Shown here: positions 45,270 through 49,711 of the stretch, in pieces | How the letters are laid out: every line of letters begins with the position of its first letter | How positions within the stretch are numbered: the stretch's first letter is position 1 | From: Escherichia coli | GTDB lineage: Bacteria > Pseudomonadota > Gammaproteobacteria > Enterobacterales > Enterobacteriaceae | Assembly: GCF_036507355.1 (NCBI RefSeq) | Contig: NZ_AP027877.1 | Length of the DNA: 64,000 nucleotides | Direction: 5' to 3' (one strand) | Notes under the pieces: generated by a model | What the model saw: the letters and a program-made list of their open reading frames with translations, nothing else | Told to the model about the DNA's origin: nothing | The model's database searches: none | Translations under genes and position numbers: made by a program

Positions 45270-45366
45270 GCTACGCTTGTCAGGCCTATTCGACTCCTGC
45301 AATGTATTGAATTTGCATAGTTTTGTAGGTCGAATAAGGCGTTCACGCCGCATCCGGCGTGAACAA
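45270..45366. repeat. REP/BIME element between cho and nadE
   Basis: GTAGGTCGAATAAGGCGTTCACGCCGCATCCGGC is a canonical REP unit, with a second partial unit upstream. Confidence 0.85.
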
Positions 45367-46771: not shown

Positions 46772-46802
46772 TCACTTCGTCTGAAAGCTTGAGTAACAAC
46801 GG

Positions 46803-46829
46803 AAACCGGCCATTGCGCCGGTTTTTTTT
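46803..46829 (+). terminator. Rho-independent terminator of osmE
   Basis: AAACCGGC-CATTGC-GCCGGTTT stem-loop followed by a T8 run. Confidence 0.85.
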
Positions 46830-47069
46830 GGTCTGAGTTCTTAATTATCTTCGCGAATTATTTGCCCGAAATGTGAAGAGGGTCATAACCGCAGGTCAAG
46901 GAGAGACAATTTATAAGGTCAAAGAAATACTATTGCTCAGGTCTATACCGTATACTCCTTTCAGCCACAAAAAAAGTCATGTTGGTTTCGCAAGTTACCC
47001 AGAGCATGGAAGCAGGTTAAGGCTTGCGGAGTGTCTGGCTGACAGATAATCGTCGATGAGGGCAGTTTT

Positions 47070-47390
47070 ATGGAAAAGAAACACATTTATCTGTTTTGTT
47101 CTGCGGGCATGTCTACCTCTTTACTGGTATCAAAAATGCGCGCACAGGCAGAAAAATATGAAGTTCCGGTCATTATTGAAGCATTTCCGGAAACACTGGC
47201 TGGTGAAAAAGGTCAGAATGCCGATGTCGTGTTATTAGGGCCGCAGATTGCTTATATGTTGCCCGAAATCCAGCGTTTGTTACCCAACAAACCGGTTGAA
47301 GTAATTGACTCGCTGCTTTATGGCAAAGTCGATGGTTTAGGCGTGCTTAAGGCTGCGGTTGCAGCGATTAAAAAAGCCGCAGCAAATTAA
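47070..47390 (+). CDS. chbB: PTS N,N'-diacetylchitobiose-specific EIIB component
   Basis: 106 aa, [29 protein letters not shown] with the phospho-acceptor Cys in CSAGMSTS. Confidence 0.95.
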
Positions 47391-47475
47391 TTTATTTTAA
47401 ATTTTCCCGTCAAAGAGTTATTTCATAAATCAATACCGCAATATTTAAATTGCGGTTTTTAAGGGTATTTTTCTA

Positions 47476-47631
47476 TGAGTAATGTTATTGCATCGCTTGA
47501 AAAGGTACTCCTCCCTTTTGCAGTTAAAATAGGAAAGCAGCCACACGTTAATGCAATCAAAAATGGCTTTATTCGCTTAATGCCGTTAACCCTTGCGGGG
47601 GCCATGTTTGTATTAATTAACAACGTTTTTC
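47476..47631 (+). pseudogene. chbC: chbC 5' fragment (PTS chitobiose EIIC), truncated after about codon 52 by IS1
   Basis: ATG at 47476 translates [52 protein letters not shown], then runs straight into the IS1 left inverted repeat at 47632. Confidence 0.9.
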
Positions 47632-47686
47632 GGTGATGCTGCCAACTTACTGATTTAGTGTATGATGGTGTTTTTGAGGTGCTCCA

Positions 47687-47962
47687 GTGGCTTCTGTTTC
47701 TATCAGCTGTCCCTCCTGTTCAGCTACTGACGGGGTGGTGCGTAACGGCAAAAGCACCGCCGGACATCAGCGCTATCTCTGCTCTCACTGTCGTAAAACA
47801 TGGCAACTGCAGTTCACTTACACCGCTTCTCAACCCGGTACGCACCAGAAAATCATTGATATGGCCATGAATGGCGTTGGATGCCGGGCAACAGCCCGCA
47901 TTATGGGCGTTGGCCTCAACACGATTTTACGTCACTTAAAAAACTCAGGCCGCAGTCGGTAA
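47687..47962 (+). CDS. insA: IS1 InsA (transposition inhibitor; N-terminal part of the InsAB' transposase)
   Basis: 91 aa, [39 protein letters not shown], zinc finger plus helix-turn-helix. Confidence 0.97.
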
Positions 47963-48384
47963 CCTCGCGCATACAGCCGGGCAGTGACGTCATCGTCTGC
48001 GCGGAAATGGACGAACAGTGGGGCTATGTCGGGGCTAAATCGCGCCAGCGCTGGCTGTTTTACGCGTATGACAGGCTCCGGAAGACGGTTGTTGCGCACG
48101 TATTCGGTGAACGCACGATGGCGACGCTGGGGCGTCTTATGAGCCTGCTGTCACCCTTTGACGTGGTGATATGGATGACGGATGGCTGGCCGCTGTATGA
48201 ATCCCGCCTGAAGGGAAAGCTGCACGTAATCAGCAAGCGATATACGCAGCGAATTGAGCGGCATAACCTGAATCTGAGGCAGCACCTGGCACGGCTGGGA
48301 CGGAAGTCGCTGTCGTTCTCAAAATCGGTGGAGCTGCATGACAAAGTCATCGGGCATTATCTGAACATAAAACACTATCAATAA
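47881..48384 (+). CDS. insB: IS1 InsB frame (expressed as the InsAB' transposase by -1 frameshift at TTAAAAAACTC)
   Basis: 167 aa frame [16 protein letters not shown]...HYLNIKHYQ; slippery A6C site lies near the end of insA. Confidence 0.95.
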
Positions 48385-48399
48385 GTTGGAGTCATTACC

Positions 48400-48894
48400 C
48401 AGAAAGTCGAGAAACAACTTTTTGAGCTGTATAAAAACCCGGAGTTGAAAGTTAAGCCGAAAGAACTGGAACAGCGCGGTGGGGCTTATTACTCTGATGC
48501 AGCGTGCGAAGTGATCAACGCTATCTACAACGATAAGCAAGCAGAACATTACGTTAATATCCCGCATCATGGGCATATTGATAATATTCCGGCAGACTGG
48601 GCGGTAGAAATGACCTGTACGCTGGGGCGCGATGGCGCGACGCCACATCCGCGCATTACGCATTTCGATGATAAAGTGATGGGGCTGATTCACACCATTA
48701 AAGGCTTCGAGATTGCTGCCAGCAACGCCGCACTTAGCGGAGAATTTAACGATGTGTTACTGGCGCTAAACCTTAGTCCGTTGGTGCATTCCGATCGCGA
48801 TGCTGAGCTGCTGGCACGCGAGATGGTTCTGGCGCACGAGAAATGGCTGCCAAATTTTGCCGACTGCATCGCAGAGCTTAAAAAAGCACATTAA
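48400..48894 (+). pseudogene. chbF: chbF 3' fragment (family-4 6-phospho-beta-glucosidase), last ~165 codons only
   Basis: In-frame translation KVEKQLFELYKNPELKVKPKELEQRGGAYYSDAACEVINAIYNDKQAEHYVNIPHHGHID...AELKKAH starts directly at the IS1 right end; no start codon, promoter or N-terminal Rossmann domain is present. Confidence 0.88.
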
Positions 48895-49665
<771 letters not shown>

Positions 49666-49711
49666 GTAAGGTGGTAAGGTCACTCCCCAGGGGACGTGAC
49701 CTTATCCATAT

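Follow-up and report, generated by a model that had tools for sequence, protein, structure and literature searches.

Sequence evidence for an IS1-bounded deletion allele of the chitobiose operon chbBCARFG in Escherichia coli

Structure of the chb locus

The analysed 64-kb stretch of E. coli DNA (hereafter the window) carries a real IS1-bounded deletion allele of the chitobiose operon chbBCARFG in a chromosome that is otherwise collinear with K-12. The synteny with osmE and katE is kept, chbB and chbG are intact, chbC and chbF are truncated, and chbA and chbR are absent; the six-gene order B-C-A-R-F-G is not found between osmE and katE. The chb locus of the window is a remnant and not a functional chb operon, composed of the following features.

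46772..47069, + strand: osmE-chbB intergenic region, retained, gap-free against K-12 with 4 mismatches in 298 nt; according to the literature it includes the chb promoter and operator region
47070..47390, + strand: chbB (PTS EIIB), intact 106-aa ORF
47391..47474, + strand: chbB-chbC spacer, retained, 84/84 nt the same as in K-12
47475..47631, + strand: chbC' remnant (EIIC gene), first 157 nt, that is, 52 codons plus 1 nt
47632..48399, + strand: IS1, intact, 768 bp, transcribed in the same direction as the operon
48400..48894, + strand: 'chbF remnant (family-4 6-phospho-beta-glucosidase), codons 287-450 plus the stop (164 codons)
48907..49665, + strand: chbG (chitooligosaccharide deacetylase), intact 252-aa allele

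Ahead of chbB lies osmE, also on the + strand, and the katE gene follows chbG on the - strand. As the initial annotation had proposed, chbB (47070-47390) and chbG are intact. The ChbB protein is identical to K-12 ChbB and matches the NCBIfam equivalog NF007796 over its full length (225.9 bits), and ChbG matches the equivalog NF002559, also at full length (401.7 bits against a cut-off of 227), differing from the ChbG of strain PapRG-04-4 by 1 residue and agreeing with K-12 at 230/252 positions.

The exact breakpoints, for which an alignment to a reference chb locus had been suggested, were obtained with blastn against K-12 MG1655 (NC_000913.3). On the left, the chbC' remnant breaks at chbC nt157. 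The earlier reading of about 52 chbC codons followed by an IS1 starting at 47632 holds, but the ATG lies at 47475 rather than 47476. The chbC' ORF runs to 47636 (53 aa) and ends at a TGA formed within the left end of IS1; ChbC residues 1-52 were matched at 100% by tblastn, and the NCBIfam model NF007634 is covered at positions 1-52 of 452. On the right, IS1 ends at 48399 as previously noted, and 'chbF begins at chbF nt859, codon 287 position 1. The 164 codons and stop that are kept agree with the roughly 165 codons of the initial reading, and the N-terminal 63% is gone. ChbF residues 285-450 were matched at 97% by tblastn, and the only Pfam match on record is Glyco_hydro_4C.

The IS1 element and the extent of the deletion

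The inserted element has the size of an IS1, 768 bp, with imperfect 23-bp terminal inverted repeats. The left repeat (IRL, 47632-47654) is GGTGATGCTGCCAACTTACTGAT and unique in the window; the right repeat (IRR, 48377-48399) ends in AAGTTGGAGTCATTACC and has the reverse complement GGTAATGACTCCAACTTATTGAT. Both reading frames are intact, insA at 47687-47962 (91 aa) and the insB' frame of 167 aa running to 48384, as is the A6C motif of programmed -1 frameshifting (AAAAAAC, 47938-47944). The NCBIfam model transpos_IS1 covers both ORFs, at model positions 1-81 and 75-199. The element is IS1A-like, with 99.5% identity to an IS1A copy annotated in strain 1585m1, and since it is intact it is potentially active. 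Its 9-bp flanks, ACGTTTTTC on the left and CAGAAAGTC on the right, differ, and realignment revealed no direct repeats, in agreement with what had been reported before. An 8-9 bp target duplication is therefore lacking; this is as expected for a deletion derivative and is no argument against the IS1 identity. The simple IS1 insertions found in the chb operon of other strains do show 8-9 bp duplications.

IS1 replaces the segment from chbC nt158 to chbF nt858, which measures 3,415 bp in K-12 and 3,414 bp in PapRG-04-4. The loss itself is thus as first described, but its size needs correction from the earlier value of about 3.3 kb. In K-12 terms, the missing DNA comprises the remaining 1,202 nt of chbC, the whole of chbA and chbR, and the first 858 nt (63%) of chbF. 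Neither the deleted segment nor ChbA or ChbR had any match in the 64-kb window by blastn and tblastn, so the absence of chbA and chbR stands. The two breakpoints are not natural neighbours, as they lie 3.41 kb apart in both intact references examined, K-12 and PapRG-04-4.

Both ends of the deletion coincide to the base with the IS1 termini, and no microhomology was found at the breakpoints when PapRG-04-4 was taken as an intact proxy for the ancestor. The allele shows these features expected of an adjacent deletion: an endpoint exactly at the IS terminus, a retained IS, no duplication and no microhomology. Chance is no issue here, given the 99.5% identity of the IS1 to annotated IS1A copies and the gap-free alignment of its flanks to the reference operon.

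Genomic context and occurrence of the allele

The 64-kb window is collinear with K-12 positions 1,868,697-1,801,841 at 98.3-98.4% identity. Only two structural differences separate them, namely the IS1/chb lesion and a chbG-katE spacer of 44 bp in place of 256 bp. No other IS was found in the window, and all ORFs of at least 200 aa that were compared with K-12 gene lengths are full length. Among 5,426 complete E. coli genomes, none exceeds 99.0% identity across the 17.6 kb left of the lesion, which indicates that the lineage is poorly represented among finished genomes; on the right, the best value is 99.6% across 9.6 kb. The closest intact relative is PapRG-04-4, with an operon that matches the window at 99.6% identity both left and right of the lesion. 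A Shigella origin was considered on account of the 99.0% and rejected as unnecessary, because the window is K-12-collinear, free of other IS elements and full length in the compared ORFs.

Several further observations concern the surroundings of the lesion. The chbF'-chbG stretch (48400-49715) is only 93.5% identical to K-12, against 98-99% in its flanks. The same divergent chbF-chbG allele is seen in PapRG-04-4 (99.6% identity to the window) and in E07, which makes it a natural allele unlinked to IS1. The short chbG-katE spacer also occurs in PapRG-04-4, E07 and GTEN_23. Elsewhere in the window, an intact 632-aa ORF (60850-62748, - strand) takes the place of arpB; the K-12 MG1655 annotation lists arpB as a pseudogene. 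Only one Rfam match in the 64 kb exceeds the gathering score, the sRNA ES036 (CssrF) at 45282-45324 on the - strand (42.9 bits), in the cho-nadE intergenic region.

Each IS1 junction of the window was sought in the 5,426 complete genomes, which returned no contiguous match but only joined non-contiguous pieces; the reverse-orientation version of the left junction likewise returned only joined non-contiguous pieces. Draft data were more informative. An exact-product look-up found the 53-aa ChbC' product in 14 draft contigs. Three of these (L004, L006 and L009) agree with the window at 99.96-100% identity and run into an IS1 of the window's orientation. The same kind of look-up placed the 149-aa ChbF' ORF on three contigs (L011-L013) that begin within the IS1 right end. 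Both junctions were found in runs SRR32181686 and SRR31122001, and both occur in independent public draft assemblies of the window's lineage at no less than 99.95% identity. The exact-product look-up with the window's ChbG gave no match, and a literature search found no paper on this particular chb allele. The chb IS1 junctions should be good lineage markers.

IS1 insertions and deletions in the chb operon of other lineages

Loss of the chb operon is rare (0.6%), as 5,391 of the 5,426 complete E. coli genomes retain at least 80% of it. Three other lineages carry independent IS1-bounded chb deletions, with no duplication and with chbG spared in all of them.

AHB3 (NZ_OZ547164.1, L014): chbC nt441, IS1, chbF nt982; 3,262 bp lost
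WP7-S17-ESBL-04 (L015): chbC nt129, reversed IS1, chbF nt242
2017-01-4CC (L022): chbB nt262, IS1, chbF nt1255

For AHB3, sister genomes record a precursor state. FDAARGOS_1287 and GPEC1031 (L024/L025) carry a simple IS1 insertion at the AHB3 site, with a 9-bp duplication (GGTGGGGCG), as the only IS1 in the operon. The left flank and the whole IS1 of AHB3 are 100% identical to those of FDAARGOS_1287, after which exactly 3,262 bp following IRR are missing; a single-IS precursor with the neighbouring segment intact is thus on record for this case. These alignments are consistent with an origin of the AHB3 allele by adjacent deletion from one resident IS1.

IS1 was also met repeatedly near the left breakpoint. 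Of the 5,426 complete genomes, 33 carry a same-orientation IS1 no more than about 570 bp downstream of nt157 in chbC, whereas the matched chimeric controls returned 0 genomes with astC and 1 with ydjK. Many of the 33 genomes are clonal relatives, and the enrichment of IS1 in 5' chbC is indicative only. From the match spans, these genomes appear to hold at least 4 distinct IS1 sites in chbC (nt ~199, 256, 408 and 441). AT-richness was examined as a cause of the excess; chbC nt86-730 is 52% AT, compared with 45-47% in the control genes, a difference too small to account for it alone. Simple IS1 insertions in chbR occur in E07 and 1585m1.

The chbC nt157/IS1 junction itself (chbC nt145-157 correspond to 47619-47631) recurs on other backbones, at about 2% divergence from the window. 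The IS1 is in the window's orientation in one contig (L007) and in the opposite orientation in others (L002/L003 and L005/L008/L010), and the opposite-orientation junctions carry two IS1 end variants, ending in CTTATTGAT and CTTACTGAT. Both orientations, several backbones and two end variants together indicate at least 3 independent IS1 hits at the nt157 bond. The chbC target AACAACGTTTTTC (47619-47631) also resembles the chbF sequence AACAACTTTTTG (48414-48425), which lies 14 nt from the window's right breakpoint and is the site of the GTEN_23 IS1; this likeness may reflect a local target preference of IS1.

Tentatively, and with low confidence, these observations can be read as a sign that the 5' third of chbC, in particular the nt157 bond, is a true IS1 hot spot, and that in natural E. 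coli the IS1-driven loss of the chitobiose system is favoured by mechanism or has been selected repeatedly, always sparing chbG and the chbB-ChiX-decoy module. If the hot spot is a true one, both the target choice of IS1 and parallel gene loss could be studied at chb in a natural setting.

Origin of the allele

Copies of an IS without a target duplication arise through adjacent deletion or through IS-IS recombination (PMC11708052), the same two routes that the initial annotation had offered for the window. Both are supported as live options, and the final sequence alone, being compatible with adjacent deletion as well as with recombination between two direct IS1 copies, cannot tell which one occurred. 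We consider a two-step adjacent deletion from a resident IS1 the best explanation of the allele, and a moderately probable one. In the first step, IS1 would have inserted into chbC at the 9-bp target ACGTTTTTC (nt149-157). Transposase acting at IRR would then have driven an intramolecular transposition into chbF at nt858/859, which would have removed the 3.41 kb between the two sites together with the right copy of the duplication, leaving IS1 and its left junction untouched. For the window's own lineage we infer this order of steps. The recurrent hits at nt157 make a primary insertion there plausible, and in the long-term evolution experiment every one of the 14 IS-associated deletions whose history was traced had formed as a two-step adjacent deletion (PMC11708052).

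A simple insertion at chbC nt157 should have a right-hand junction in which IRR is followed by ACGTTTTTCTAAGC. A search via the 359-aa N-truncated ChbC product retrieved no isolate of the window's own lineage with such an insertion, and on the other backbones that carry the nt157 left junction only left sides were recovered. Most matches to the 359-aa product came from older draft assemblies that lack 1 bp of the T7 homopolymer of chbC (nt172-178), the rest being IS1 at other sites. The 1-bp T7 loss (loci L026-L034, chbC nt171-178) splits chbC into ORFs of 63 aa and 359 aa. These losses are probably homopolymer sequencing errors and not real pseudogenes; an error in the chbC homopolymer has been reported (PMC3045373).

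Another possible, though rather doubtful, history is that two IS1 copies in the same orientation inserted independently, one into chbC (nt149-157) and one into chbF (nt859-867, CAGAAAGTC), and that RecA-dependent recombination removed one copy along with the 3.4 kb. Such a history predicts the observed outcome, a single IS1 with two different flanks, and the chb operon is a frequent IS1 target. The required type of precursor exists in FACU 2024 (L021), with direct IS1A copies in chbC nt67-76 and chbF nt121-132, and GTEN_23 has a simple IS1 in chbF nt873-883, in the same orientation and only 14-24 nt from the window's right breakpoint. It requires, however, two insertions within 3.4 kb as well as one recombination. 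No pair of direct IS1 copies bounding the window's exact breakpoints was found among the 5,426 complete genomes, and an IS1 with the right flank from chbF nt859 occurs in 0 of the 5,426, save as joined non-contiguous pieces. Moreover, the AHB3 precursors, the sole parallel with sister genomes, hold a single IS1. A one-step event, in which insertion and deletion would have happened in the same aberrant transposition with no IS1 resident before, is very unlikely in our view. This has been proposed for movements with large deletions, no duplication and no detectable precursor (PMC11708052), but those proposals concern IS5 and IS481 rather than IS1; the AHB3 parallel is clearly two-step, and the left junction of the window is an IS1 site on other backbones, which suggests an ordinary primary insertion.

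It also seems highly improbable that the junctions are an assembly artefact, in which the genome would hold two IS1 copies flanking the 3.4-kb segment and the assembler would have collapsed the repeat. The junction-bearing short-read contigs all stop inside IS1, so that one copy joining both flanks is unproven by them. Against a collapse stand the continuous 64-kb window without the segment, the joint presence of both junctions in samples SRR32181686 and SRR31122001, and the complete genomes of other lineages, which prove that chb deletions with a single IS1 exist.

Functional consequences

In the intact operon, the PTS transporter is the product of chbBCA. The phosphorylated disaccharide is deacetylated by ChbG, which yields both the ChbR inducer and the compound that ChbF hydrolyses (PMC9402603, PMC4488073). 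From these known gene roles, the lack of EIIC and EIIA should abolish chitobiose uptake, the lack of ChbF should abolish hydrolysis, and the lack of ChbR should leave the chb promoter no longer activatable. The loss of chitobiose use that the initial annotation predicted is therefore supported. The chitobiose pathway would be dead, and known cellobiose-positive mutations could not be expected to reactivate it. The strain is predicted not to grow on chitobiose and to have no chb route to cellobiose use.

The retained chbB-chbC spacer includes the decoy site for the sRNA ChiX, with the complementary core CCCGTCAAAGAG at 47406-47417; the decoy role of the chbBC intergenic RNA is described in PMC7815308. 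Both chbB and the decoy spacer would remain at basal expression, and because ChbR is absent their induction by chitosugars should be lost, which predicts a formerly inducible ChiX decoy unresponsive to chitosugars.

At the right junction, the 'chbF remnant does share the phase of insB, but it cannot be called a protein fusion with IS1. Translation of insB would stop at its TAA (48382-48384), five codons short of the junction, and the chbF' frame offers no start codon ahead of a TTG at 48445; a fusion protein is therefore not to be expected. We also do not uphold the idea that IS1 read-through drives chbG. IS1 insertions are classically polar, ChbR is deleted, and a consensus scan for an outward IS1 promoter or a junction promoter upstream of chbG found none, the only hit being the known promoter-like site at the IS1 left end. 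Read-through expression of chbG is possible but unsupported, and chbG is probably left orphaned, with a polar IS1 upstream and no promoter in evidence.

Comparison with known systems

The IS1 of the window is an ordinary one and the type of event is textbook, with close parallels in finished genomes and no new mechanism. The allele adds one more documented case in which IS1 has reduced to a remnant an accessory sugar operon that nearly all E. coli conserve. The one by-product of mild interest is that IS1 has used chbC repeatedly, with the nt157 bond hit in both orientations.

Deletions of the gal region are the classical IS1-mediated adjacent deletions. The window resembles them in its intact IS, in a deletion that begins precisely at an IS terminus, in the preservation of one original flank, in the lack of a duplication and in the loss of neighbouring genes. 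It is unlike them in that its mechanism is assigned by analogy with the AHB3/FDAARGOS_1287 pair. Large IS1-related deletions, for example of the nfsB region, also figure in the reference list of PMC12428005.

AHB3 is the nearest counterpart. It shares with the window the operon, the IS1 orientation, the arrangement chbB - chbC' - IS1 - 'chbF - chbG, the missing duplication and a similar size of deletion, whereas its breakpoints and backbone differ, which makes the two events independent, and its sister genomes with the simple insertion are known. WP7-S17-ESBL-04 and 2017-01-4CC likewise have an IS1-bounded deletion inside chb without duplication and with chbG intact, but at different breakpoints; in WP7-S17-ESBL-04 the IS1 orientation is opposite to that in the window, and in 2017-01-4CC chbB is truncated too.

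IS insertions and chbR mutations can also activate the chb (cel) operon for cellobiose use. In those events the same operon is hit by an IS, but regulation is altered and a gain of function is possible, whereas in the window the transporter, hydrolase and regulator are deleted and only loss of function is possible.
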